This document shows positions 8,135 through 57,558 of a stretch of 64,000 bases of DNA, one piece after another. The position numbers were made by a program, and so were the translations under genes. Source of the stretch: a virus. The DNA lies in the IMG/VR virus record IMGVR_UViG_3300045988_135160. One strand, given 5' to 3'. The notes under the pieces are model-generated. The model was not told the DNA's origin, ran no database searches, and saw only the letters and a program-made list of their open reading frames with translations. Position 1 is the stretch's first letter, and every line of letters starts with the position of its first letter.

Positions 8135-9358
8135 TTATACGGAAATCCGTACTGGGTTCCACCAAAACCCTCTACCTTCTGGTAACATCGTTACATCAAA
8201 GGATTCTTTTGCTGATTTTCTAATGATGTTAAAAGCACCATTGATATCAGCATTAATAGTCCTACCAAACGAGGTTTTAAACAATCCTCGTTTGGTCCTT
8301 CTTCCTTTGTAAGATTCATGTTTACAAATCCGTTCATTATCCAAAAAGCTACATTTTGAAGTATAAGATTCTTCAACAATCTTAACATTAATACCTTCTA
8401 ATGTTGCTTTATACGATATCATACTGATAAACGAATTAAAAGGAATAGATACAAAGTTCTGATTATTTCGTTTTCCGATATTGATCTCTTGTTTCCAGCA
8501 TTTGTTATGACCGATTATGATCGTATTAATACCATTGGAAACTACGTGATTAATCAATATCCTACTCGCTTTGTGAAGATAATCTTTGATCTTGTTATTT
8601 CTTTTGTTGGTTAATGACCTGATTTGTTTTGAAGTATGTTTATTATCTTTTAATTTAGATTTTAAGAATGCTAATCTTTTATTATAATATTGGTTGATAG
8701 ACTTTAGTGGTCTACCATTGATAATAAAACAAGAACCTGTGTTTGAAACACAAGAAGCTAAATTATCTAATCCTATGTCGATGCCAAGATAGTTCCCATT
8801 ATCGGACATAAGATCTTTTTCCTTCTTATTGTAAACTATTTCAAGAACAATATATCCATTCTTAGGAACGAATCTAAGTTGTTGAATATTTTGTTTATTG
8901 GTTCTTGTTGTAAAAGAAAACTGTTTTGGTAACTTAACAATACCTTGTTTTATCCATTTTTGAGAAAAAGCGATTGTTGTAAAAACAGCAGTAAACAAAC
9001 CATTTTTGTTAAGATACCCAGGCATTCTAACAAATTCAGAATACTCACCTCTATTCTTTTTATTTAAAAGATTGAAGAATGATCTAAAGTTTCTATCTAC
9101 CATCATCAACACTTGCTGAGCAACCGGTGTTGGTAAAGCACGATAGTCGACATCATTTTCTATTCTTAGTTTCTTTTCGAGAGAATAATAATTGAGATAT
9201 TTGTACTTTACAGTATTATCATCCTTGTATTGGAAATAGTGTTGTCTAACAACATACAATCCTTTGTTGTATAAGTTTTTACACTTATGCAATAGGTCTT
9301 GAAGCTCATTGTAATATATTGAACTTTGTTTGATTATATGTTGTTCAACTAATCTCAT
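8135..9358 (-). CDS. tnpB: TnpB (OrfB, IS605 family RNA-guided RuvC nuclease), copy 1
   Basis: RuvC-I LGIDIGLDNLA, RuvC-II VEESYTSKC, zinc finger CSFLDNERICKHESY, RuvC-III INADINGAFNI. Probable start is MRLVEQ (9358) rather than the track start 9397, by analogy with copy 2 (MRLVYKF). Confidence 0.85.
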   Translation of the reverse strand: MRLVEQHIIKQSSIYYNELQDLLHKCKNLYNKGLYVVRQHYFQYKDDNTVKYKYLNYYSLEKKLRIENDVDYRALPTPVAQQVLMMVDRNFRSFFNLLNKKNRGEYSEFVRMPGYLNKNGLFTAVFTTIAFSQKWIKQGIVKLPKQFSFTTRTNKQNIQQLRFVPKNGYIVLEIVYNKKEKDLMSDNGNYLGIDIGLDNLASCVSNTGSCFIINGRPLKSINQYYNKRLAFLKSKLKDNKHTSKQIRSLTNKRNNKIKDYLHKASRILINHVVSNGINTIIIGHNKCWKQEINIGKRNNQNFVSIPFNSFISMISYKATLEGINVKIVEESYTSKCSFLDNERICKHESYKGRRTKRGLFKTSFGRTINADINGAFNIIRKSAKESFDVTMLPEGRGFWWNPVRISV

Positions 9359-9411
9359 GACACAAATGTAGGAATTATTATTTATATAAAAAAACAATTT
9401 CTTATATTTGT

Positions 9412-28747: not shown

Positions 28748-29114
28748 CGCAATCTATTTTACTGTTTTTTGAAAGTTCTATTATCGCCTCTTTCAACATC
28801 TCCCTTGCTTTATCTTCGTTATCTTCAAGCAAGCATACACTGCACGATATGCCCATACGATCCCCATAAGCCTCGGCATTACCTAATGTGAATGCGCAGC
28901 AGTAATCATAATCCATGTTTTTTGCTACGGCAATAAACTGATTATCTTCTATCAGTACAGCATATTCAGCATCAGTTTCACACATGATAATGGCTTTATC
29001 TTTTTTTATAGACAACACCTTGTTTCTGAAAAGTCCGTTATAAATCCATAGTTCTTTTCCTGTATTTTTATAAAACACAGCCATATCTTCCTTGATTGTG
29101 ACTTCTTTTTTCAT
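28737..29114 (-). CDS. hypothetical protein (125 aa)
   Basis: ORF track only. Confidence 0.45.
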   Translation of the reverse strand: MKKEVTIKEDMAVFYKNTGKELWIYNGLFRNKVLSIKKDKAIIMCETDAEYAVLIEDNQFIAVAKNMDYDYCCAFTLGNAEAYGDRMGISCSVCLLEDNEDKAREMLKEAIIELSKNSKIDCDGL

Positions 29115-29117
29115 GAC

Positions 29118-29474
29118 TTACTTGTGTTTAACATCAGTAATTAAAATGTATTTTTTAACAATATCTTCAAGACTCACAGAAGAACGTATATATGGTTTTT
29201 CTTCGTACTCATATAGAACGTACCCTTCTTTTATGTCTAATATCTTAATCACATGCTTGCCTCTTTCAAATGGATCCTCAAAGTAGTTCTTATGTTCGTA
29301 TCTTTGACCGACTTTGATTTTGTCAGTTTTCTTCTTCATCTTATAACGATCTACTGCTCTACCTGTTTTTATGAAAGCTGTCGTGAGTAAGTATAATAAA
29401 ACTAAATACAAAAGGATCGCTACTCCACATATTAGATCTTCTTTCATTGGACTCCTTTTAAATAGTTGAACCAT
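29118..29474 (-). CDS. membrane protein (118 aa)
   Basis: One predicted TM helix (ILLYLVLLYLLTTAFI). Confidence 0.4.
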   Translation of the reverse strand: MVQLFKRSPMKEDLICGVAILLYLVLLYLLTTAFIKTGRAVDRYKMKKKTDKIKVGQRYEHKNYFEDPFERGKHVIKILDIKEGYVLYEYEEKPYIRSSVSLEDIVKKYILITDVKHK

Positions 29475-29613
29475 ATATCCTCCATCTTCTCCTGAAGCTC
29501 AAACGCTTTCTTGAAATTCCCGCATCGTACAGCAACGTCTCTCATGTATGTCAAGTTTATAACTTCCGGATCTTGCCGGTATTTTGTTCTTAACTTTTGA
29601 ACATCCTCGTATT

Positions 29614-30633
29614 TCATCGTTTTATCTTTTTAGACGGATCCCAATCTGAAGAGAAAGGGCATTCGTTTTTGTTATGTAATCCAAAGTCACAATAGTAACA
29701 CAGTGCTGACGGGCAGGGTAGCTTGTTTTGCGGAACAGGCTGGCTTAGGGTGGCACGCCGCTTGCTATACCTGGCTCCTTCTGCTCCCTGGATGTATGCC
29801 TGAAATGTTTTTACACTATTATCTTCAAAATCATACATTTTAGACAAAGTGTCATTTAGCATCTCTATAGATTTTGTTTTACGTTCCTCATCCACCTTAA
29901 CCTTTTGGTATTGTCTGGTCCTGGTAAAGAAATAGATGTTCATATCTGGCAGAACTCCACCATATTTTCTATAGATGTAAAACGAATATATAGGATGCTG
30001 TAAATTCGTTTCCAACTTCTTAGAATCAAAAACCTTATTACCTGATTTCCAATCTATGACATAATGGTGAACTACGTTCTTGCTTTTTATAGCCAGATGA
30101 AGGTCTACCGATCCTACTATGTACACATGAGTATGAATTACTCCATTTATGTTAACAGGCTTAGGAAGACGGTACGGCAGCACAAAATCTTCTTCGACTC
30201 CAACTATAGCGCCGTGTCTGATAAGTTTCTCGCAGGGATTAAGATCACTATCAGCTATCATAAACCTATTGCCGTCTTTTTTGAACAGATCCACAATCCA
30301 AGCAAGAAGCTCTCCAGATTGCTTCATGGCTATCATCATATTTTCCGGTGATTGCCAAGGTATGTCTTCTTGGTAAGCATAGTAACTTATAGCTTCCCCC
30401 AGGTCTTTGCCAGAAGGCTGTCTTCCGTTCTTGAAGAAGTATTCCAGTGTCTTATGAATAACCGTACCATAAGACGTAGCTTCTTGTTTTTCCGTAGACC
30501 TTTTGCCCTCCACGTAAGTTTTATACCATTTCATTGGACAAGTAAGAAACGTATCTATCTGGGAATAAGATATGGCAAGACGTTTCACACCATTAAACTC
30601 CTTATATAGCAAATGCGTTTCCGGGACCATCAT
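29614..30633 (-). CDS. Cas4/RecB-like PD-(D/E)xK nuclease with Cys cluster
   Basis: Motifs SYSQIDTFLTCP, GSVD, VIDWK (ExK) and QHPIY (QxxxY). Cys cluster CPSALCYYC plus the N-terminal Cys fits a Cas4-type Fe-S ligand set. Confidence 0.6.
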   Translation of the reverse strand: MMVPETHLLYKEFNGVKRLAISYSQIDTFLTCPMKWYKTYVEGKRSTEKQEATSYGTVIHKTLEYFFKNGRQPSGKDLGEAISYYAYQEDIPWQSPENMMIAMKQSGELLAWIVDLFKKDGNRFMIADSDLNPCEKLIRHGAIVGVEEDFVLPYRLPKPVNINGVIHTHVYIVGSVDLHLAIKSKNVVHHYVIDWKSGNKVFDSKKLETNLQHPIYSFYIYRKYGGVLPDMNIYFFTRTRQYQKVKVDEERKTKSIEMLNDTLSKMYDFEDNSVKTFQAYIQGAEGARYSKRRATLSQPVPQNKLPCPSALCYYCDFGLHNKNECPFSSDWDPSKKIKR

Positions 30634-30989
30634 AAGTCATTGTCTTTAAATCCTTCTGGGTAATATACAACATATTTCTTGCCATCCTCCGGCGTCATGG
30701 CGAATTGCATGTAGTTATTACGATTACGATGTTTGCCATCCAATCCTCGTTTCCAATACAGGATACCGTCTATATCCACATAAGATCGGCCTCGGTCGGC
30801 TCTAACCACGTCCGTGTGTAGCAGATACCCGTCGGAAGACACAATCCACACTTTATCCCCTTTGCTTAAATAAGATATTCTTTTTCTTACAACAACCCTT
30901 TTCTTATTATCCAATACAAATTCCTCGTCAGTCATACTCTTCATCCTCCTCTTCTTCTGTTTCAAAATCAATTCCATAATACTGATCAT
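30630..30989 (-). CDS. hypothetical protein (119 aa)
   Basis: ORF with a 4-nt overlap. Confidence 0.45.
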   Translation of the reverse strand: MISIMELILKQKKRRMKSMTDEEFVLDNKKRVVVRKRISYLSKGDKVWIVSSDGYLLHTDVVRADRGRSYVDIDGILYWKRGLDGKHRNRNNYMQFAMTPEDGKKYVVYYPEGFKDNDL

Positions 30990-31142
30990 AATGCTTGGTC
31001 AGTTCTTCTGGTTCTAAATCTTGTCCAAAATCCATGTTAAAAATATCGTAATTAGTAAAGCACTGTTCCTGCCGGCAGGAAATCTATGAATGCTGCTTTT
31101 ATTTCTTCAATTAGGCCCAAGTGTAACCCTGGGCCATTGTAT

Positions 31143-32843
31143 TTATTTTTTGTCATCTCCTTTTAGCTTCTTTAAAGTATCTGCAATCGGAAGCTGATCA
31201 ATGACTCCCAATGCCGGAGCGACGGTCTTAACAACATTGTTAAGGAAATTACCGGTACTGTTCTGACCGCCGTCAAATACCGTGATATTTCCGAGGTTAA
31301 TGTGCTCAAATGCCTTAACCTGTTCTCCGGCAATTTCTTTCCACTGATTAACCATCTTGTACTGGATGGCGATCTGAGGATTGGATTCTGCTGCTTCCAC
31401 CATAGCCTTAAATCCGTCGGCTTCTGCCATCAACGACTTTTTCTTACCTTCGGCTTCCGCTTCCAGCTTCATCTGAATAGCTTTTGCTTCCGCCTCTGCT
31501 TTTGCCAAATGTGCTGCTGCTTCAGCATCGGCCCGGCGTTTGATCTTCTCGGCCTCGGCATCAGCTTGCAACATAGCCTCCTGCTTCTGAATTTCAGCCG
31601 GCACAATCTTTTCAGCTTTAAGCGCAGCTTGAACCTTCTTAGCTTTAGCTTCTTCCACTTCTTTATCAGCAAGCTCTTTTGCCGTTTTCACAGCCGCTTC
31701 CGATTTAACTTTCTCTTCTCCGGCTTTCTTTTCTGATTGAGCTTTGATAACCTGCAATTCTGATTCTGATACAGCAACCTCTTTCTGGGCATTGTTGTAG
31801 CCTACAGAAGCATTTTTCTCAGCCTCAGCTTTCTTAATCTGAGCTTCAGAGTCTTGTATTGCTATAGCTGCTTGTTTGTCAGCTTCAGCTTTATTCTTTC
31901 CAACTTCTTCCATTCTTTCGGCTTCAGCTTTGTTTACTTCAAGTTCCGCCTTAGATCTTGCAATCGCTGATTCCTTGTCAGCCAAAGTCTTTGCTATAGC
32001 CGCAGCCCTATCTCTATCGGCTTGAGCTACACCGATCTGTTTTTCTTTATCGGTTAAAGCCAAAGCTACTTCTTTTTCTTTCTTTGTTTCAGCTACTACC
32101 GTTTCTTTTTCTTTTTCAGTATAGGCAATTTGAATCTCTTGCTCTTTTTGGGTATTAGCTACAGCCGTTTCTTTTTCCTTCTGTTGTACAGCAATCTTAA
32201 TAGCACCCAGCTTTTCCTGTTCTTCGATATTAGCCTGTGCTTCGTTCAGAGCCTTGCTTTCAGCCTCTTTACCAAGATTCATGATGTAGCCGGCTTCATC
32301 TCTGATGTCACTGATGTTAATGTTCAAAAGATAAAGACCCAATTTATTAAGTTCGTTATCAATGTTTTTTCTTGCCTTATCCAAAAACTCATCCCTATCA
32401 GAATTAAGTTTTTCGATTGTCATTTCGGCAATAATCAAACGCATCTGACCGTAAACGATGTCTGTAATAAGATTTTCAGTAGATTCGGTATCCATCCCCA
32501 AAAGTCTTTCTGCTGCATTTTGCATGATTTCAGGATTTGTACTGATAGCTACTGTAATAGTTGTAGGCACATCTACTCTAATATTCTGAGATGACAAAGC
32601 ACCGGTAAGCCTACAATCTATTTGCATAGGCTCCATAGACAAAACATCATAGCTTTGAATAATAGGCAAGACAAATGCCGCTCCACCATGATATAATTTT
32701 GCCGACTTCTTTTCCCCACCTGTCTTACCGTAAACGACCAAGACCTGATTAGGCTTACATCTACGATACCTTGATAAGACTCCGATGATTGTCAAAATAA
32801 TCACTACAGCTAAGATGGCTGACACGTACATAATTGTTGTCAT
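31143..32843 (-). CDS. flotillin-like SPFH (band-7) domain protein
   Basis: N-terminal TM helix, SPFH core (QVLVVYGK...GGAAFVLPIIQSYDVLSMEPMQID), then a long Glu/Ala/Lys-rich flotillin-repeat coiled coil. Same architecture as FloT/YuaG. Confidence 0.8.
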   Translation of the reverse strand: MTTIMYVSAILAVVIILTIIGVLSRYRRCKPNQVLVVYGKTGGEKKSAKLYHGGAAFVLPIIQSYDVLSMEPMQIDCRLTGALSSQNIRVDVPTTITVAISTNPEIMQNAAERLLGMDTESTENLITDIVYGQMRLIIAEMTIEKLNSDRDEFLDKARKNIDNELNKLGLYLLNINISDIRDEAGYIMNLGKEAESKALNEAQANIEEQEKLGAIKIAVQQKEKETAVANTQKEQEIQIAYTEKEKETVVAETKKEKEVALALTDKEKQIGVAQADRDRAAAIAKTLADKESAIARSKAELEVNKAEAERMEEVGKNKAEADKQAAIAIQDSEAQIKKAEAEKNASVGYNNAQKEVAVSESELQVIKAQSEKKAGEEKVKSEAAVKTAKELADKEVEEAKAKKVQAALKAEKIVPAEIQKQEAMLQADAEAEKIKRRADAEAAAHLAKAEAEAKAIQMKLEAEAEGKKKSLMAEADGFKAMVEAAESNPQIAIQYKMVNQWKEIAGEQVKAFEHINLGNITVFDGGQNSTGNFLNNVVKTVAPALGVIDQLPIADTLKKLKGDDKK

Positions 32844-32874
32844 AACTTTTAAAATTTAATTGTTGATAAAAAAA

Positions 32875-33369
32875 TTAGATAATTAATTCTCCTTCTTCGT
32901 ATTTTATATTCACCTTGTCACCGTTTTTGTAAGTTTTTCCAGACAAGCATCTTACTCTCATTTGCTCCTGTCTTCCATTTTTCGAAATATTTACCATATA
33001 ATGATTCTTCCCTGATCTAAACACTATCTCCACCTCTCTGCCATTTAAATCTTCCGGACATTCGTACACCATTTCTTGCTTTAACTTAAGAAGTAACTTA
33101 TATACGTAAAACAAAACGATAAAGAAAAACGACCCTATCACAACCCCTACTAAATGGGAACCCGAAAAGTAGGTAGTCCAGCTATATCCAAGAATAAAAT
33201 GTGTTATGCCCTTGAATGATATGATGTCCGACAAAGACATACTTAAATCAGAAGCATCATCAATATCAATATCCGTATCCAGATCAGATCCTAATATCGA
33301 CAACAAAAACTGTATAACAAAAGCAAATGACGCTATTAAAGCCATGCATAAAATTATGTCACTTCCCAT
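32875..33369 (-). CDS. NfeD-like membrane protein (flotillin partner)
   Basis: 2-3 TM helices plus a C-terminal beta-rich soluble domain (GKTYKNGDKVNIKYEEGELII). Sits immediately upstream of the flotillin gene, as in the yuaF-floT pair. Confidence 0.5.
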   Translation of the reverse strand: MGSDIILCMALIASFAFVIQFLLSILGSDLDTDIDIDDASDLSMSLSDIISFKGITHFILGYSWTTYFSGSHLVGVVIGSFFFIVLFYVYKLLLKLKQEMVYECPEDLNGREVEIVFRSGKNHYMVNISKNGRQEQMRVRCLSGKTYKNGDKVNIKYEEGELII

Positions 33370-33610
33370 ATCCTTCTGTTATTATTTTGTAAACAAGATC
33401 AGTCATATCTTTGATGGTCTCCATATCATAATCATTAATAACAATATTGAATTTTTGTTCCACCATCACTTCCAGTTCAATTTGATCGATAGAATCTAAT
33501 CCAAGTTCTTTAAACGTCACATCTTCTTCATGAACTATATCTATTTCCGAATTAAGAAACTGAGTAATAATTATATCCTCTATTATCTTTCTGATTCTTA
33601 CTTTTTCCAT
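33359..33610 (-). CDS. acyl carrier protein-like (83 aa)
   Basis: LGLDSIDQIELEVMVEQKF matches the ACP phosphopantetheine-attachment DSL/helix-II signature. Overlaps both neighbours, suggesting translational coupling. Confidence 0.55.
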   Translation of the reverse strand: MEKVRIRKIIEDIIITQFLNSEIDIVHEEDVTFKELGLDSIDQIELEVMVEQKFNIVINDYDMETIKDMTDLVYKIITEGYGK

Positions 33611-34311
33611 TGCTTTCTAATTTTGTTAAATAAATACGTTTTTATGTTTTTCAATCGCTCTTTGTCTGTTTCAGAACTTCCGGTAAACAAATAATCCGGA
33701 TTGCCTTTAGCCGGCGGCGTAGGCAATTTAGATACGGCAAACAACCAATCCATTTCCTTATTCTTCTTAGACTCCAAATAAGGCTCGGTAGCGATCTTAA
33801 ATTTTTCAGCTATTAAGTCAAAGAGCTTTGAATTTTTAAGGTTCATATGGACCGAAAAGGCCTGAGAAGGCGGTTTCCATATGAAGTTACATAAGCTCAT
33901 TGTATAATCTCCTGACTCTGCTATATAAGATTCCGTTACCTGAAGTATGACCTCTTTCTTGAATGAGGTGTTACCCATAAACCAACACAACCTGGATTCC
34001 GCTTCTTTTCTGCTGACACCTATGTCTTTTGAATACGATTCGTACATTCCTATCATAATCTTCAACGTTTCCAGAACCTCGTCTGTCATCTCCGGTGTCT
34101 CTATATAATTCACAAAAGACGTTCCTTTGTTGGTCAATCTCATCACGCCTGATTTTAATTTCTCAACCAGGCCAAGCTCTATATACCTCCCAGCATCTTT
34201 TTCCAGCATGGCTTCGATCATAACCGTATCCTTCTGTCTTATAGCAAGAAGATTAGCCAGATCATTAGGAGTCATGTCTGATGCTGCAAGTTGTCTGAAA
34301 TTGATGTACAT
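33598..34311 (-). CDS. hypothetical protein (237 aa), first gene of the ACP/NfeD/flotillin operon
   Basis: ORF with a 13-nt overlap onto the ACP gene. Confidence 0.5.
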   Translation of the reverse strand: MYINFRQLAASDMTPNDLANLLAIRQKDTVMIEAMLEKDAGRYIELGLVEKLKSGVMRLTNKGTSFVNYIETPEMTDEVLETLKIMIGMYESYSKDIGVSRKEAESRLCWFMGNTSFKKEVILQVTESYIAESGDYTMSLCNFIWKPPSQAFSVHMNLKNSKLFDLIAEKFKIATEPYLESKKNKEMDWLFAVSKLPTPPAKGNPDYLFTGSSETDKERLKNIKTYLFNKIRKQWKK

Positions 34312-34313
34312 GC

Positions 34314-34523
34314 CTAATCAGCTTTAATAAAAATAACATCCTTACCATCCTCCCTCTCTACGTGATTACACGGGCCTGCGACTACATCTACCGACCCGCA
34401 TGTAATGTGGTCATTAAATATACATCCTTCACATCCTAAGTCTGGCTCTGGAGCATCCACACATTTTAATCTCACAAGTCCGGCATCAAACACTTCTCCT
34501 ACTTTAAATTCCTTCTTTTCCAT
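34314..34523 (-). CDS. small Cys-rich protein (69 aa)
   Basis: CxxC pairs (CEGC ... CNH). Confidence 0.35.
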   Translation of the reverse strand: MEKKEFKVGEVFDAGLVRLKCVDAPEPDLGCEGCIFNDHITCGSVDVVAGPCNHVEREDGKDVIFIKAD

Positions 34524-34538
34524 ATTTCCTCCTTGTTT

Positions 34539-35141
34539 TTAACTGTTGTACCCTTCTTTGATAATCGAATTTCTACCGGTAGATACCGACTGTCGAAGAT
34601 CGTCATGTACAGAATCTACCGTAGAATACTTGTTTCTGGTTGTAAAAATCACTTCCAGCATCTCCTTGTAATCACCTAAAGCTACTTCATATCTCGGATC
34701 TACTTTGGCTTTTCTTTCGGCCTCGGCATTACTCTTAGCCAGCTCTCGGTCAAGAAGATCTTCTTTGATTCGGTCAGCAATCATATCAAGTTCTTTTTTT
34801 ATGACTTCTCCTGCTGCCCGAAGTTGACCTTCTACGTCGCCAAGCTGATCTTGGACGGTTCCTATTTCTTTCTTTAGGCGATCGTATTCGTTAATCATAC
34901 CCATATCACCTGCATAGCCGGAAAAGTCCTTGATTATTCTGGTTCCTTCTTTAAGGAGTTCAATAACTCGTCTTTTACGTTCTCTGCTTATTAAAGACGG
35001 AAGACGATAATTCATATCCGCCACCGCCTTATCATGTATGGAGTTGATTAAAAACATCTCTCTTTCATCCCCTGCAAACTCAGTAAGAACCAAAAGGAAC
35101 TTACTTATCAGGTATTCGTTTTCTTCTACTGTTAGTCTCAT
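34539..35141 (-). CDS. hypothetical coiled-coil protein (200 aa)
   Basis: ORF track only. Confidence 0.5.
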   Translation of the reverse strand: MRLTVEENEYLISKFLLVLTEFAGDEREMFLINSIHDKAVADMNYRLPSLISRERKRRVIELLKEGTRIIKDFSGYAGDMGMINEYDRLKKEIGTVQDQLGDVEGQLRAAGEVIKKELDMIADRIKEDLLDRELAKSNAEAERKAKVDPRYEVALGDYKEMLEVIFTTRNKYSTVDSVHDDLRQSVSTGRNSIIKEGYNS

Positions 35142-35156
35142 GGTTCTTATTTTTTT

Positions 35157-36293
35157 TTAATACAATGACTGTTCTTCCTTTGTCTCTTGTTCTTGATCTT
35201 GATTGTTCGTAACGTCTTCCACAGTATAGAGCTTGGGCGGCGTCGGCGGCTGGTTGGGGTTCACGAACTTCGTCCCGCCCTCCCCGTACATCCATCCATG
35301 TCCCGGCAGTATCTCTGGGTGGATTGTATTAGTAAGCTCTTCCATACTAACTTGCCTTACCTTCAGTATATGATGAAATACCAGTCCGGCTGTCCTGAAT
35401 GATGTTTTGTTTTCAGTTTTAAACCTATCAAGGGTCTGATACCAGTCTTTCCCAAATATCATATACTTATCCAGCCCGTACCTACGAGGATTGTGCAAAC
35501 CTATCATTAACGTACATAACTGACCCAGCGTATCGGATTGGTAAAAATCAGAAAGACGCGGAGGCTGCTCTTGTGGGCTTTTTATCCTTCCTTCTATTTC
35601 TCTGTTGAATTGGGATATGATGAGGAAAAATATGTTTTTATATACTAATTTAGCTTCGTTCATAACCGCCACCAAATCATCTATAGCCGACTTAGGATCT
35701 AATCCCATTCTTTTTATCAAAGCAATATGATCGACTTTAAATATTATAAGACGTTTGTCTTTATGTTTGGTAGCTATATGATACACAGCCGCCTCAAACT
35801 CTTTTACCGTACACGGAGCATCGATGTATATTATATTATTCCTGATTTCACCTTGAAGGATTTCAAACATCCTCATCTCTTCTACTGTATTAGAATCTTG
35901 CCTTCTTAATATTTCAGGAGCTCGCATTTTCATATCCTGGCTCATTCTACGAAGAAGAAGATCTTGAGGATTCATTTCGAACTCGCAATTAACAAGAAAA
36001 TAATCTTCTGCTTGCGGGTTGATCATCGGATTCATAACATTTTCCAATATCTTTTGAGCCACATACGATTTACCTACAGATGGCCGGGCTCCTATGGCAA
36101 TAGCGTGCTGAGGAAAAATACCTCCAAGCAAAGCCTCATCAATATAATCGTATCCGGTTTTAGCGGGGATAAGCTCTCCCCGCCTGTATTTCAAGATATT
36201 CTCATACGCCTCTTCCATAACCTGTTTGGAGGTTTTGAAAATATTCCGGATGTTAACTTTTGTCGTTTTGTTATCGAATGTTCCAAACTCCAT
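35157..36293 (-). CDS. DnaB-like replicative helicase (RecA-fold C-terminal domain)
   Basis: GYDYIDEALLGGIFPQHAIAIGARPSVGKS is the DnaB Walker A/H1 region. Walker B-like LIIFKVDHI. Confidence 0.65.
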   Translation of the reverse strand: MEFGTFDNKTTKVNIRNIFKTSKQVMEEAYENILKYRRGELIPAKTGYDYIDEALLGGIFPQHAIAIGARPSVGKSYVAQKILENVMNPMINPQAEDYFLVNCEFEMNPQDLLLRRMSQDMKMRAPEILRRQDSNTVEEMRMFEILQGEIRNNIIYIDAPCTVKEFEAAVYHIATKHKDKRLIIFKVDHIALIKRMGLDPKSAIDDLVAVMNEAKLVYKNIFFLIISQFNREIEGRIKSPQEQPPRLSDFYQSDTLGQLCTLMIGLHNPRRYGLDKYMIFGKDWYQTLDRFKTENKTSFRTAGLVFHHILKVRQVSMEELTNTIHPEILPGHGWMYGEGGTKFVNPNQPPTPPKLYTVEDVTNNQDQEQETKEEQSLY

Positions 36294-36298
36294 TGTGA

Positions 36299-37558
36299 TT
36301 ATTCGTTATTATGTGTATTTGCTTTATATCCATATGATTGATCTACTTCAATAGAAGTCAATCCATGTCCTATATATTTTAATTTTTTATATGATATATT
36401 TTTCTCATTTTCCCCATCTATATCTTTTATTTTAAAACTACCAGAAAGTCTTCTTGCGTAAATAAATCGTTTTTCACCATAAAACATTACTTTATCAAAT
36501 AGTCTAAACCCAAATACCCTAAATGGTGATTGATTCATTCTTTTGATCCCTCCCTTTTGCATCTTCATTTTATGAATTTGCCTATTATGTCTCCGTGTGA
36601 GTTTCATCTTGAAATGATATCCAAGCCTTTTTGCTTTAAAATTCTCTGAGATAACAAATGCATCAGAAACATGGGACTTTTCGATTCTATGTTTTATCCG
36701 ATTATGTTTCGTTATATATCCAAATGTCATACTAACGTTTGGATATAATGACTTCAATTTATCGAATAACTTCCATTTCATGATTCCCATCGCGGCCGCA
36801 TCACGAAGTGAAGTTCCTCTTTTTACCTTCAATTTAATATTCCCCTTATGGTACTCCTTATGGCAAGTTTCACATAAAGTAATCAAATTAGAAGGTGAAT
36901 CTCCACCAGTCTTTCGCGATTCGATATGGTGGATATTAAGAATAGGATTTTTCGATTTTCCCTTACAATGCTGGCATTTGTGACCATCACGAAAAAGTAT
37001 GTATTCTCGAACATTCCAAAATCCAAGTTGCTCGCCTTGCTGGTATTCTTTTCCCAATATATCAGGATTCTTAATCTTTTGAGTATCAAACTGAGAAGTT
37101 TCTATAATTAATCTTGAAACAGGAAGGATAGAATGTATAAAACTGACAACCTTAATATGGGAATCAATTTTTTGACAAACAGATGGAGCTATCCATCCTT
37201 GGCGCTTCGACTTTATTCTGTTATTAAATCTCGGCTTTCTATACCTTATCCTATTCCTTCTCGCTTTCCTCAATTCTCTTCTTGTCGAAAGCAAATTAAT
37301 GATATCATTTCTCAGAATAACTTCACTTGCGTAAAGCTCCTTGCTTTTCGTCGTAGCTGATAGACCAACATGTTTAGTTCCAGCATCAACGCCTAACACA
37401 ATTTCCTGTTTGTAATCAGATGTGACGTACATTAATTTGATGGTAAACGGACATAAGTTGACAACAACTGCCTTTTTGTCTTTAAGCAGTCTTCTAACCT
37501 TACCATGCCTTGTTGTTGGCATCAAAGGTTTACCATCTATGTCTTGTACGTACACCAT
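36299..37558 (-). CDS. iscB: IscB RNA-guided nuclease (PLMP, split RuvC and HNH), copy 1
   Basis: N-terminal DGKPLMPTTRHGKVRRLLK (PLMP domain). RuvC-I LGVDAGTKHVGLSA. HNH CQHCKGKSKNPILNIHHIESRKTGGDSPSNLITLCETCHKEYH. RuvC-III SHVSDAFVI. Size of 419 aa is typical of IscB. Confidence 0.85.
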   Translation of the reverse strand: MVYVQDIDGKPLMPTTRHGKVRRLLKDKKAVVVNLCPFTIKLMYVTSDYKQEIVLGVDAGTKHVGLSATTKSKELYASEVILRNDIINLLSTRRELRKARRNRIRYRKPRFNNRIKSKRQGWIAPSVCQKIDSHIKVVSFIHSILPVSRLIIETSQFDTQKIKNPDILGKEYQQGEQLGFWNVREYILFRDGHKCQHCKGKSKNPILNIHHIESRKTGGDSPSNLITLCETCHKEYHKGNIKLKVKRGTSLRDAAAMGIMKWKLFDKLKSLYPNVSMTFGYITKHNRIKHRIEKSHVSDAFVISENFKAKRLGYHFKMKLTRRHNRQIHKMKMQKGGIKRMNQSPFRVFGFRLFDKVMFYGEKRFIYARRLSGSFKIKDIDGENEKNISYKKLKYIGHGLTSIEVDQSYGYKANTHNNE

Positions 37559-37810
37559 TTGTTACAAACTAATTTTTAATTAATAACTACTATTCGTAGT
37601 AAGTCAGATATATTTCAATCTGTTAGTACCCATCGCCAATGTTATTCAGAGGTTTCTTACAAGCAACACTGTATCCAAATACAAATACTGTTTAATCACC
37701 TGCCTTAGAGCCTGGAGCTTGGATAAACACTCCAGGGTAACTATACATTCTCCGATAACGTAGTGCTCGAAGCACTTAGGCTAATAACCGGCCAGTAAAA
37801 CTGGATATAC
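36377..37810 (-). mobile_element. non-autonomous IS200/IS605-like IscB element 1 (iscB plus upstream omega-RNA block; boundaries approximate)
   Basis: Similarity to copy 2 extends from about codon 394 (YKKLK) through the roughly 230-nt upstream conserved block, then stops. Confidence 0.45.
37559..37810 (-). ncRNA. putative IscB omega-RNA (guide at the 5' end, about 37791-37810)
   Basis: Non-coding block immediately 5' of iscB-1, conserved with the block 5' of iscB-2. Two hairpins show compensatory changes: CCTGGAG/CTCCAGG versus CTACGAA/TCCGTAG, and GTGCT/AGCAC versus GTGTT/AACAC. Confidence 0.55.
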
Positions 37811-37843
37811 AAAAAAGTAAAATTCTATTTGTCTTTTTGTATA

Positions 37844-38119
37844 TTATTTCGGAGATCTTGCATTTTTGTCACCTTTCGTATCCGACTTGGATCCCCTATT
37901 AGCTTTTACTGATTTATACCTAAGACCGTTCTTGGTATGAGAACAATCCTTGCCTTTCCTCCAGCCCTTGCCCTTCTTCTTGTCCGTTTCGTAGTTTTTA
38001 CGACCAAGCTCCCGGCGTTTGGCTTTCTGTTCCGGTCTGGCATTTATCTCCTTGTCCTTTTTAGCCTTTTTCTTCCTGGCTTCTGGATGAGTCCTGTAGT
38101 ACTCTGTTGATCTGCCCAT
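37844..38119 (-). CDS. highly basic Lys/Arg-rich small protein (91 aa)
   Basis: ORF with more than 35 percent K+R. Confidence 0.4.
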   Translation of the reverse strand: MGRSTEYYRTHPEARKKKAKKDKEINARPEQKAKRRELGRKNYETDKKKGKGWRKGKDCSHTKNGLRYKSVKANRGSKSDTKGDKNARSPK

Positions 38120-56325: not shown

Positions 56326-57558
56326 TTGTATCATAAAACTGATAAGGAAATGATTAAAGGTTACAAATATAGATTAGATCCTACACCGGAACAGATTGTC
56401 CAAATGGAGAAAACATTTGGATGTTGTAGGTATGTCTATAATTGGGCTCTTGATCTGAAAATTAAAACTTATCAGGGTGAAAAAAGATCTTTGTCAGCAG
56501 TTGATTTATGCAAGCAGCTAACATTACTCAAAAAAGATGAGAACCATCTTTGGCTAAATGAAGTATCTAATGAATGCTTGCAACAATCTATACGCTGTAT
56601 GGATAGTGCCTTCACCAAATTCTTTAGAGAACATACCGGATTTCCCAAATTCAAATCCAAACATAGGGATAAGAACGTTTTTAAGAATGTCAATTCTGTT
56701 AAGTTTGATTTTGAAAATAACAGAGTTAAGATTCCTATCATTGGTTGGGTAAAGTTTTTTGCCAATCGGTCCTTTGAAGGTGAGATTGGTACGATAACAA
56801 TATCTAAATCATCAACCGGTAAGTTTTATGCAAGTGTCTTAATAGATGACGGTATTCCTAATCCTGACAAATTTGCTATCAATTCCGATACAACAGTAGG
56901 AATTGATGTGGGAATTAAGGATTTCGCCGTCTTATCCAATGGGCAGGTTTTTAGTAATCCGAAGTATTTGGAATCTGTGCAGAAAAGATTAGGATGCTTG
57001 CAAAGAAGGTTTAGTCGCAAACATAAAGGAAGCAACCGATACAAGAAGGCAAAACATGATATTGCCGTTTGTCATGAACGGATTCGAAACCGTAGACAAG
57101 ATTTCTTACACAAGGTCAGTAAGAAGATAGTAAGTGAAAACCAAACTATTATCATCGAAGATCTTAATGTAGAAGGTATGTTGAAAAATCATTGCCTTGC
57201 TAAGGGTATTGCTTCTGCATCTTGGAGCGAGTTCTTCAGGATGCTGCAATATAAATCAGATTGGCGCGGTGTTAATTTAATTCGGATAGGTAGATTCGAG
57301 CCGAGTTCTAAGATGTGCGGATGTGGATACATACATCGTGATCTTAAGTTATCGGATCGAGTATGGACTTGTCCTGAATGTGGCGCCGTCAATGATCGTG
57401 ATTTACTTGCAGCGAATAACATTAAAAGATTTGGGTTAGAAAAGAAGAATCTTCTAACCCAAGAAAATATTAACAAGACACCGGTGGTGAACCGGGAGGG
57501 GGACGTGGAGTTGTCGGCGGTAGCCGGAGCTGTGAAGCGTCAAAATGTACTGGTGTAA
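56326..57558 (+). CDS. tnpB: TnpB (IS605 OrfB family), copy 3, from a different subfamily than copies 1 and 2
   Basis: N-terminal YRLDPTPEQ HTH. RuvC-I VGIDVGIKDFAVLSNG. RuvC-II IIIEDLNV. Zn finger CGCGYIHRDLKLSDRVWTCPECG. RuvC-III NDRDLLAANNI. Opposite strand to the surrounding genes. Confidence 0.85.
   Translation: MYHKTDKEMIKGYKYRLDPTPEQIVQMEKTFGCCRYVYNWALDLKIKTYQGEKRSLSAVDLCKQLTLLKKDENHLWLNEVSNECLQQSIRCMDSAFTKFFREHTGFPKFKSKHRDKNVFKNVNSVKFDFENNRVKIPIIGWVKFFANRSFEGEIGTITISKSSTGKFYASVLIDDGIPNPDKFAINSDTTVGIDVGIKDFAVLSNGQVFSNPKYLESVQKRLGCLQRRFSRKHKGSNRYKKAKHDIAVCHERIRNRRQDFLHKVSKKIVSENQTIIIEDLNVEGMLKNHCLAKGIASASWSEFFRMLQYKSDWRGVNLIRIGRFEPSSKMCGCGYIHRDLKLSDRVWTCPECGAVNDRDLLAANNIKRFGLEKKNLLTQENINKTPVVNREGDVELSAVAGAVKRQNVLV

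Follow-up and report, generated by a model that had tools for sequence, protein, structure and literature searches.

The window analyzed here is a 64,000-nucleotide (nt) stretch of viral DNA (IMG/VR record IMGVR_UViG_3300045988_135160). Its minus strand carries, between positions 31143 and 34311, a block of four genes that ends in a flotillin gene preceded by the gene of a putative NfeD-type partner (Table 1). An earlier note, drawn up from the sequence alone, had described this block as a phage-borne operon, and the four minus-strand open reading frames (ORFs) that it listed were all confirmed in position and length. It had also taken all four genes to be coupled by overlapping stops and starts. 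Overlaps were found at two junctions, of 13 nt between the 237-amino-acid (aa) gene and the acyl carrier protein (ACP)-like gene and of 11 nt between the ACP-like gene and the 164-aa gene. The flotillin start, however, lies 31 nt from the stop of the 164-aa gene, and the overlaps therefore tie together just three of the four genes.

Table 1. Features of the flotillin block and its surroundings (window coordinates)
Feature	Coordinates	Strand	Evidence
Flotillin (SPFH2/FloT-YqiK type), 566 aa	31143-32843	-	Pfam, NCBIfam, and PDB matches
AT-rich spacer, 31 nt, from NfeD-like stop to flotillin start	32844-32874	-	Sequence read
Putative NfeD2-like (YuaF/YqiJ-type) flotillin partner, 164 aa	32875-33369	-	Fold, topology, synteny, family profile
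Orphan ACP-like gene, 83 aa	33359-33610	-	Pfam PP-binding, PHROG 5934
Putative winged-helix backbone gene of the replication module, 237 aa	33598-34311	-	Predicted fold, conservation in relatives
Segment missing from the commonest flotillin-less conspecifics	31042-32871	-	blastn junction mapping
Two stable RNA hairpins directly 3' of the flotillin stop	31057-31139	-	RNA folding
119-aa protein, distal end of the variable slot	30630-30989	-	ORF list
PD-(D/E)XK exonuclease, downstream border of the slot	29614-30633	-	Pfam PDDEXK_1 (9e-21), PHROG 69
Conserved 200-aa protein, upstream backbone with DnaB	34539-35141	-	Order kept in relatives
DnaB-like replicative helicase	35157-36293	-	Pfam DnaB_C (1.2e-17), PHROG 37407 (2.5e-39)

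The 566-aa protein matched Pfam Band_7 (PF01145; E value of 3e-25; 89.7 bits, cut-off 23.6) over residues 30-211 and Pfam Flot (PF15975; 1.3e-9; 38.6 bits, cut-off 27) over residues 450-559. One N-terminal hydrophobic segment, residues 1-28, is predicted to serve as a membrane anchor, and a coiled coil was called from composition across residues 215-465, which are 64% E, A, K, or Q. The protein is thereby divided into an anchor (1-28), an SPFH domain (~30-215), a coiled coil (~215-465), and a C-terminal Flot domain (~450-560), in agreement with the earlier description of a FloT-like flotillin with a transmembrane (TM) segment, an SPFH domain, and an EA-rich coiled coil. The best solved relatives in the PDB were human flotillin-2 (6e-23) and flotillin-1 (6e-18), with QmcA also among the matches. 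The NCBIfam FloT model NF058507 was matched at 7e-43 and 147 bits, against an equivalog cut-off of 700, and aligned with residues 9-275 only. Judged by these profile matches, the protein is a member of the flotillin family but not a FloT equivalog. It matched no PHROG family, and no PADLOC defense family was matched by the flotillin, the NfeD-like protein, or the ACP.

The profile searches placed the Band_7/SPFH and PP-binding assignments above cut-off but did not recover NfeD. The 164-aa protein matched neither Pfam NfeD (PF01957) nor NCBIfam NfeD even at E values up to 10, its Bacteroidaceae orthologs likewise had no Pfam NfeD match at E <= 10, and neither it nor the 237-aa protein matched any Pfam, NCBIfam, or PHROG family. 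Since the direct profile match failed, the NfeD2-type assignment draws on fold, topology, synteny within the operon, and a transitive family profile. Hydrophobic segments were found at residues 1-30 and 67-96, and the AlphaFold model places TM helices at residues 2-25, 52-69, and 72-101, giving a predicted layout of one TM helix, an acidic D-rich loop, two further TM helices, and a C-terminal OB-like beta-barrel (residues 112-163; pLDDT 82-89). An exhaustive profile search collected a family of 407 cluster representatives, mostly of 155-210 aa. Pfam NfeD was reached by 4 of 83 full-length members (best E value of 6e-5), and the profile built from the 83 sequences had YuaF as its best PDB match (E = 0.031), with the whole soluble domain covered. 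Searches of the PDB with phmmer and with a 6-sequence profile returned noise only (an anti-sigma factor antagonist and a de novo protein).

A gene of this kind lies directly upstream of the SPFH gene in the window, in a sister phage, in Bacteroides salyersiae, in Phocaeicola massiliensis, and in a Planctomycetia metagenome-assembled genome (MAG). The MAG protein, of 208 aa, has the same layout and weak YqiJ_N and NfeD matches; hhalign of a small family profile against it aligned the OB region at 19.8% probability (E = 0.0011), a result that was not used as stand-alone evidence. The UniRef name of the 165-aa P. massiliensis ortholog is "NfeD-like C-terminal domain-containing protein." The SPFH2 flotillin-like genes are described as sharing operons with "minimally conserved" NfeD homologs (YuaF, YqiJ) that are recognizable mainly by structure (PMC2636767, Hinderhofer et al. 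2009). Together, model and sequence comparisons support the 164-aa protein as a probable, weakly conserved YuaF/YqiJ-type (NfeD2) flotillin partner. The earlier designation as an NfeD-like membrane protein thus stands on fold, topology, synteny, and the transitive profile, although not on a family match.

The nearest nonphage flotillins, P0218 (62% identity) and P0207 (50%), were located on chromosomal contigs amid housekeeping genes, and exact matches of the neighboring housekeeping proteins named the contigs as B. salyersiae and P. massiliensis. On both contigs an unannotated 165-aa gene lies immediately upstream of the flotillin, with no ACP; its products are 41-43% identical to the phage 164-aa protein over the full length. 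The flotillin identity to the Bacteroidaceae proteins was 77% in the SPFH region (residues 1-215), 53-59% in the coiled coil (216-465), and 74-75% in the C-terminal domain (466-566). For the Planctomycetia protein the corresponding values were 49%, 34%, and 32%, and for the flotillin family protein of Vibrio phage KIT04 they were 34%, 38%, and 32%. The GC content at third codon positions (GC3) of the phage flotillin was 0.37, matching the phage, versus 0.50 for the host gene; with so phage-like a value, the capture is taken to be not recent. A genome-collection scan with a single flotillin query and over-specific peptide patterns gave one match, the Planctomycetia MAG, at 34%. These comparisons indicate that the NfeD-like and flotillin genes were in all probability captured together from a two-gene operon of a Bacteroidaceae chromosome.

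The surrounding DNA belongs to a phage. The region 29000-38000 had 94.9% DNA identity to csAssE-Sib (OR575929.1), a complete 151-kb human-gut crAss-like genome, with the match spanning 82% of the query in two pieces. The csAssE-Sib record lists the crassvirus hallmarks, namely muzzle and ring proteins, BACON-type carbohydrate-binding proteins, and a diversity-generating retroelement. The block itself is flanked by the DnaB-like helicase and PD-(D/E)XK exonuclease genes. In IMG/VR, 165 loci encode the flotillin, the best 80 of the 165 being at least 97% identical; each IMG/VR scan covered the best 80 loci and was dominated by the abundant species of the window. The source is an uncultured, abundant, and very common human-gut crAss-like phage, and the block is phage DNA. 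The possibility raised by the earlier note, that the segment might be host flanking DNA, was thereby checked, and its observation that a NfeD-type/flotillin pair, a cellular membrane-scaffold module, lies next to an ACP-like gene within bona fide phage DNA was upheld. Its label of "early region" derives from the position among replication genes and is to be read as a probable designation.

The gene order was compared among relatives at several levels of identity, with the contexts of distant relatives taken from contig look-ups. A sister species (237-aa protein 76% and flotillin 83% identical) has the same block as the window. In a 60%-identical relative the 237-aa gene is followed by an overlapping ACP-like gene that lacks the attachment serine, a DNA methylase gene, two small ORFs, and two radical-SAM genes. 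A 52%-identical relative has nothing in this position, the exonuclease gene coming directly after the 237-aa gene, and relatives at 36-43% have no ACP. The four-gene synteny that the earlier note proposed to look for in other phages was found in csAssE-Sib and the sister species and not in the relatives at 60%, 52%, and 36-43%. An IMG/VR scan with a 37%-identity relative as the query found nothing. The exonuclease was conserved in all relatives examined. Since the contents of the slot vary, the backbone consists of DnaB, the 200-aa protein, the 237-aa protein, the variable slot, and the exonuclease, with the ACP and the NfeD-flotillin pair as cargo. Within this crAss-like clade, the slot between the 237-aa gene and the exonuclease gene is a hotspot for cargo.

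The 237-aa protein has a predicted fold comprising an N-terminal MarR-like winged helix and a helical C-terminal domain, and its family is much wider than those of the other three proteins, reaching down to 36% identity. On the model, it looks like a DNA-binding winged-helix protein. Two other roles were considered for it and rejected. A partner enzyme of the ACP (phosphopantetheinyl transferase [PPTase] or acyltransferase) does not agree with the winged-helix plus all-helical fold or with the occurrence of the gene without the ACP, and the PADLOC match to the defense component LmuC was weak (E = 0.002, 16 bits) and judged to be noise.

Several further observations concern the slot. The genes that replace the NfeD-flotillin pair in the 60%-identical relative (L003:6941-9946), with the two radical-SAM genes adjacent, are possibly a DNA-modification cassette. 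The 119-aa protein matched no Pfam, PHROG, or NCBIfam family and has a 46%-identical relative in a P0060-type phage. Between the flotillin (or NfeD-like) gene and the 119-aa gene, an extra insert of ~360 nt was present in L113, L118, L140, L143, L146, L153, L166, and L168 at a site corresponding to window ~30978-31044, adding to the variation in the hotspot. The hairpins that follow the flotillin fold at -27 kcal/mol (z = -2.74; none of 200 shuffles folded as well), and this stretch is lost along with the flotillin in deletion variants; the hairpins are possibly a 3' boundary or terminator of the cassette. The csAssE-Sib annotation puts a 50-aa ORF over the same stretch. A sigma-70 promoter scan of the sequence performed at chance (17 found versus 16.1 expected), its consensus being unsuited to Bacteroides/crAss promoters, as did a terminator scan (2 found versus 4.2 expected), and no operon boundaries were drawn from either.

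The 83-aa protein matched Pfam PP-binding (9e-8; 32.7 bits, cut-off 20.8) and PHROG 5934, "acyl carrier protein," and all its matches to NCBIfam ACP equivalogs were below cut-off (best 32.8 versus 71). It has a pI of 4.3 and, at 0.29, the lowest GC content of the block. The earlier note had reported an intact "DSL" phosphopantetheinylation motif; the attachment serine is indeed present, but the motif reads LDSID. This serine was kept in 232 of 239 ACP-like ORFs, all 232 of them from the window species and its sister species. The slot ACPs of related phages carry FDDLD (six ORFs) or FDYFD (one ORF), as in L003:6675-6938 and L123:3412-3666, the counterparts of the window gene, and with Asp or Tyr in place of the serine phosphopantetheinylation is impossible there. 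Between the two flotillin-bearing species the ACP was 38% identical, compared with 63-83% for its neighbors, and its within-species ratio of nonsynonymous to synonymous substitution rates (dN/dS) was 0.35, compared with 0.03-0.09. No PPTase, Fab, acyl-ACP synthetase, or acyltransferase gene was found among the 206 annotated features of csAssE-Sib or in the neighborhood. Given the fast evolution of the ACP, the serine-less relatives, and the lack of annotated partner enzymes, a flotillin-linked lipid-carrier role is unsupported, and the slot "ACPs" of these phages may be adaptors and not carriers.

The flotillin is under strong purifying selection, as indicated by substitution rates within and between species. 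Its pooled within-species dN/dS was 0.032, that of the NfeD-like gene was 0.093, and the NfeD-like gene in flotillin-less genomes only gave 0.114. Between the sister species the flotillin dN/dS was about 0.06, with 83% aa identity, compared with 78% for DnaB and 76% for the 237-aa protein. Judged by the dN/dS of 0.03-0.06, the flotillin is clearly functional.

The pair is nevertheless not present in every genome. Presence and absence were scored in 78 complete IMG/VR loci, chosen by the sole criterion of a 237-aa protein at least 98% identical. The flotillin region was present in 54 of the 78, the ACP and NfeD-like genes were present without the flotillin in 20 (about 26%; two with a truncated NfeD), and the remaining 4 had larger deletions or a replaced ACP. 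One locus, L098, has the 237-aa gene without ACP, NfeD-like gene, or flotillin. The flotillin deletions mapped by blastn have at least seven different junctions. The commonest takes out the entire flotillin ORF together with the spacer and ~100 nt of downstream sequence that include both hairpins (Table 1). Position 32872 is joined to 31041 in L096 and 32870 to 31044 in L100; the upstream junctions fall at 32870-32873 in L096, L100, and L116, making the spacer the upstream edge of this common deletion. The pair is therefore optional accessory cargo, dispensable and repeatedly lost within populations yet kept across at least two phage species.

Within the flotillin, the coiled coil (residues ~160-465, with the hotspot at window 31450-32240 covering residues ~200-465) has undergone many independent in-frame deletions in proteins that are otherwise 97-100% identical (P0099-P0218). 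The deletions range from 2 to 159 aa (2, 6, 9, 11, 22, 33, 85-99, and ~156), with 11 aa and its multiples frequent. The 11-aa steps hint at a hendecad-type repeat register, and some of the deletions could be short-read assembly artifacts. In other deletion variants, the N-terminus of the NfeD-like protein (or the ACP region) is joined in frame to the last ~60-135 flotillin residues, as in fusion proteins P0020, P0027, P0031, P0028, and P0032 (L020-type) and in loci L109 and L162, with 33075 joined to 31556 and 33348 to 31503.

The interpretation that we favor, with moderate confidence, is that the block is not a four-gene operon but a winged-helix backbone gene lying beside slot cargo, that cargo being an orphan ACP and a captured NfeD-flotillin scaffold operon of conditional benefit. 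The capture would be old enough for the codon composition to have ameliorated and for two phage species to have diverged. The pair would be transcribed together with the replication genes, and the N-terminal anchor of the flotillin would embed itself in the host cytoplasmic membrane on the inner face, where the protein may oligomerize through its SPFH domain and coiled coil into a flotillin-type scaffold. Flotillin-1/2, HflK/C, and QmcA form scaffold assemblies of this kind. The NfeD-like protein would dock onto the scaffold through its OB domain, and the phage flotillin, being 74-77% identical to the host protein in its globular domains, may coassemble with the host scaffold or replace it. 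The benefit would be conditional, with membrane integrity, fluidity, or membrane-protein complexes being kept or reorganized during infection in some hosts or under some conditions.

Several points weigh against this interpretation. The benefit of membrane maintenance is a guess by analogy with bacterial flotillins, and the frequent clean loss of the flotillin means that it is dispensable, so that any benefit must be context dependent. The donor assignment comes from two bacterial sequences, with nothing closer in the genome-collection scan. The between-species dS is saturated (~2 or undefined), making the between-species dN/dS approximate, and the pooled pairwise dN/dS values are not phylogenetically independent. 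In addition, the ACP overlaps both its neighbors and its serine is kept in both flotillin-bearing species, making a functional link between the ACP and the NfeD-flotillin pair possible.

The original proposal would have all four genes, from the 237-aa gene to the flotillin, act as a single operon in which acyl or lipid chemistry on the ACP is coupled to flotillin microdomains, and through which the phage remodels host lipid metabolism. The stop/start overlaps that join the first three genes, the same four-gene order in the sister species, and the confinement of all 232 serine-bearing ACPs (among 239 ACP-like ORFs) to flotillin-bearing species speak for it. The genes, however, do not co-occur across relatives: the 237-aa gene is found without the others and the ACP without NfeD or flotillin, and within the species the ACP persists without the flotillin in 20 of 78 genomes, while both are missing from one. 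The slot ACPs of relatives lack the serine, the csAssE-Sib genome has no annotated acyl-ACP enzyme or PPTase, the Bacteroidaceae operon has no ACP, and the 237-aa protein resembles DNA-binding proteins of the winged-helix kind. We therefore consider a single operon of this kind very doubtful. It is next to inconceivable that the arrangement is an artifact (host flanking DNA, contamination, or chimeric assembly) or that the pair is a decaying, functionless passenger. Although the pair is clearly bacterial in origin and often deleted, the same arrangement was found among phage replication genes in more than 160 IMG/VR contigs, in the complete 151-kb GenBank genome, and in the sister species, its composition has ameliorated to the phage value, and a dN/dS of 0.03-0.06 excludes neutral decay.

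The remaining alternatives concern what the scaffold does. The earlier note had put forward replication-compartment assembly, superinfection exclusion, or defense interference, which are conjectural candidate roles. The pair, possibly with the ACP, may be arms-race cargo in phage-host or phage-phage conflict, where it could provide membrane superinfection exclusion or counter membrane-targeting abortive infection, for example through an SPFH cage that sequesters or buffers pore-forming effectors. The slot is a diversity hotspot, and what a relative carries there, a DNA methylase with two radical-SAM enzymes, is cargo typical of anti-restriction or DNA modification; conflict genes of conditional use usually show just this mix of presence/absence polymorphism and, when present, strong purifying selection; and the coiled-coil length is hypervariable, with a fast-evolving ACP alongside (dN/dS of 0.35). 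Still, the absence of PADLOC matches for flotillin, NfeD-like protein, and ACP, the very slow evolution of the flotillin (dN/dS of 0.03, diversifying selection not being apparent outside the indels), and the absence of an SPFH protein among the known anti-defense or exclusion proteins in the literature searched leave this a credible but somewhat unlikely explanation. A more elaborate form, which we regard as unlikely, would make the phage flotillin a dominant, tunable mimic of the host scaffold and part of an ACP-coupled membrane platform for conflict with host defenses or competing phages. It could coassemble with host flotillin and NfeD, the variable coiled-coil length could change the cage geometry, the ACP, which has its serine and is coupled in translation to the NfeD partner, could contribute to the platform, and the variants with and without flotillin would be maintained by frequency- or host-dependent selection. 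If so, the retention of NfeD in flotillin-less genomes (dN/dS of 0.11) would mean that phage NfeD acts directly on host flotillin. HflK/C, QmcA/YbbK, and the B. subtilis flotillins associate with the membrane protease FtsH, and the phage scaffold might instead surround the FtsH of the host (or a different membrane protease), or modulate its activity, and so stabilize phage or host proteins. The QmcA match of the flotillin, the title of PDB entry 3cp0, which calls NfeD partners "implicated in regulation of membrane protease activity," and the FtsH interactions summarized for SPFH1 (YbbK with YbbJ) and SPFH3 (HflK/C) (PMC2636767) are in keeping with this. But the phage protein belongs with the flotillins (SPFH2) and not with the HflK/C or stomatin proteins, its 164-aa NfeD-like partner has no ClpP-type protease domain, and no FtsH-related gene or known FtsH substrate was evident in the neighborhood, and we consider protease control quite unlikely.

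Possibly mobile genes were also noted in the window. An endonuclease gene with RRXRR and HNH domains (Pfam 2e-58 and 1e-8; window 36299-37558, minus strand) adjoins dnaB and is apparently absent from csAssE-Sib, and among conspecific loci the position of the dnaB match and its N-terminus vary (tblastn start of ~3810 versus ~5046). The variation of the endonuclease gene suggests a mobile homing-endonuclease polymorphism. Two TnpB/IS605 OrfB-type genes (OrfB_IS605 plus Cas12f1-like TNB domains) lie at window 8135-9397 (minus strand) and 56326-57558 (plus strand), both oriented opposite to their neighbors, and copies of TnpB occur elsewhere in relatives (L004, L254, and csAssE-Sib).

Bacterial flotillins and their NfeD partners are widespread, and their function is poorly understood. 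The present locus places a complete host-type NfeD-flotillin operon in a virus of a kind that ranks among the most abundant in the human gut, and its natural allelic series (operon present, flotillin absent, coiled coils of differing lengths) offers a ready comparison. With this series one can ask what a flotillin scaffold gives a cell under viral attack and whether NfeD acts on a heterologous (host) flotillin.

Parts of the locus had been recorded before. csAssE-Sib is in essence conspecific with the window phage and has its four genes too, annotated as flotillin family protein, transmembrane protein, acyl carrier protein, and hypothetical protein; its record does not name the 164-aa protein as NfeD-like or the 237-aa protein as winged-helix. 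The literature search found no paper on csAssE-Sib or on a crAss flotillin. The T4-like phages 44RR, Aeh1, and RB43 were listed with SPFH/Band-7 genes as early as 2006 (PMC1524935), Vi01-like phages list an SPFH protein and an ACP (PMC10892097), and ACP modules have been noted in jumbophages (PMC13573597). Full-length flotillins are rare in phages, with 2 of 50,697 GenBank phage records matching over at least 80% of the protein. The flotillin and ACP annotations in OR575929 and the SPFH genes of other phages are therefore already known, while the recognition of the putative NfeD2 partner, the probable Bacteroidaceae origin, the separation of backbone from cargo, and the natural series of variants with, without, and with flotillins of differing length are new.

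The phage pair resembles yuaF-floT (yuaG) of B. subtilis, yqiJ-yqiK of E. coli, and the B. salyersiae and P. massiliensis pairs in having a small TM-plus-OB gene of NfeD2 type directly upstream of the flotillin, and it resembles the bacterial SPFH2 operons in encoding a flotillin with an anchor, an SPFH domain, an EA-rich coiled coil, and a Flot C-terminal domain. Unlike those operons, it is situated in the replication gene cluster of a lytic-type crAss-like phage, its coiled coil is shorter and polymorphic in length (flotillin of 566 aa versus 622-659 aa in hosts), and an ACP-like gene, absent from the bacterial operons, lies before it and overlaps it. Like the proteins of the T4-like phages 44RR, Aeh1, and RB43, gp200 of the Vi01-like phage Sajous1, and the Vibrio phage KIT04 protein, the window flotillin is a phage-borne SPFH membrane protein without an assigned function. 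Sajous1 also has an ACP (gp186) besides its SPFH protein. The KIT04 "flotillin family protein" is distant, about 34% identical to the window flotillin, and the gene upstream of it (L002:4680-4928) encodes 82 aa with the TM/acidic loop/TM layout of an NfeD-like N-terminus but no OB domain. None of these other phage SPFH genes is known to be part of an NfeD-flotillin operon of recent-host type or to be polymorphic within a phage population. Finally, the slot is like the "moron" and anti-defense slots of phages in being a fixed site between backbone genes with differing cargo, here in three states (empty; ACP with methylase and radical-SAM genes; ACP with NfeD and flotillin). Unlike them, it holds no recognized defense or anti-defense gene but a membrane-scaffold operon.

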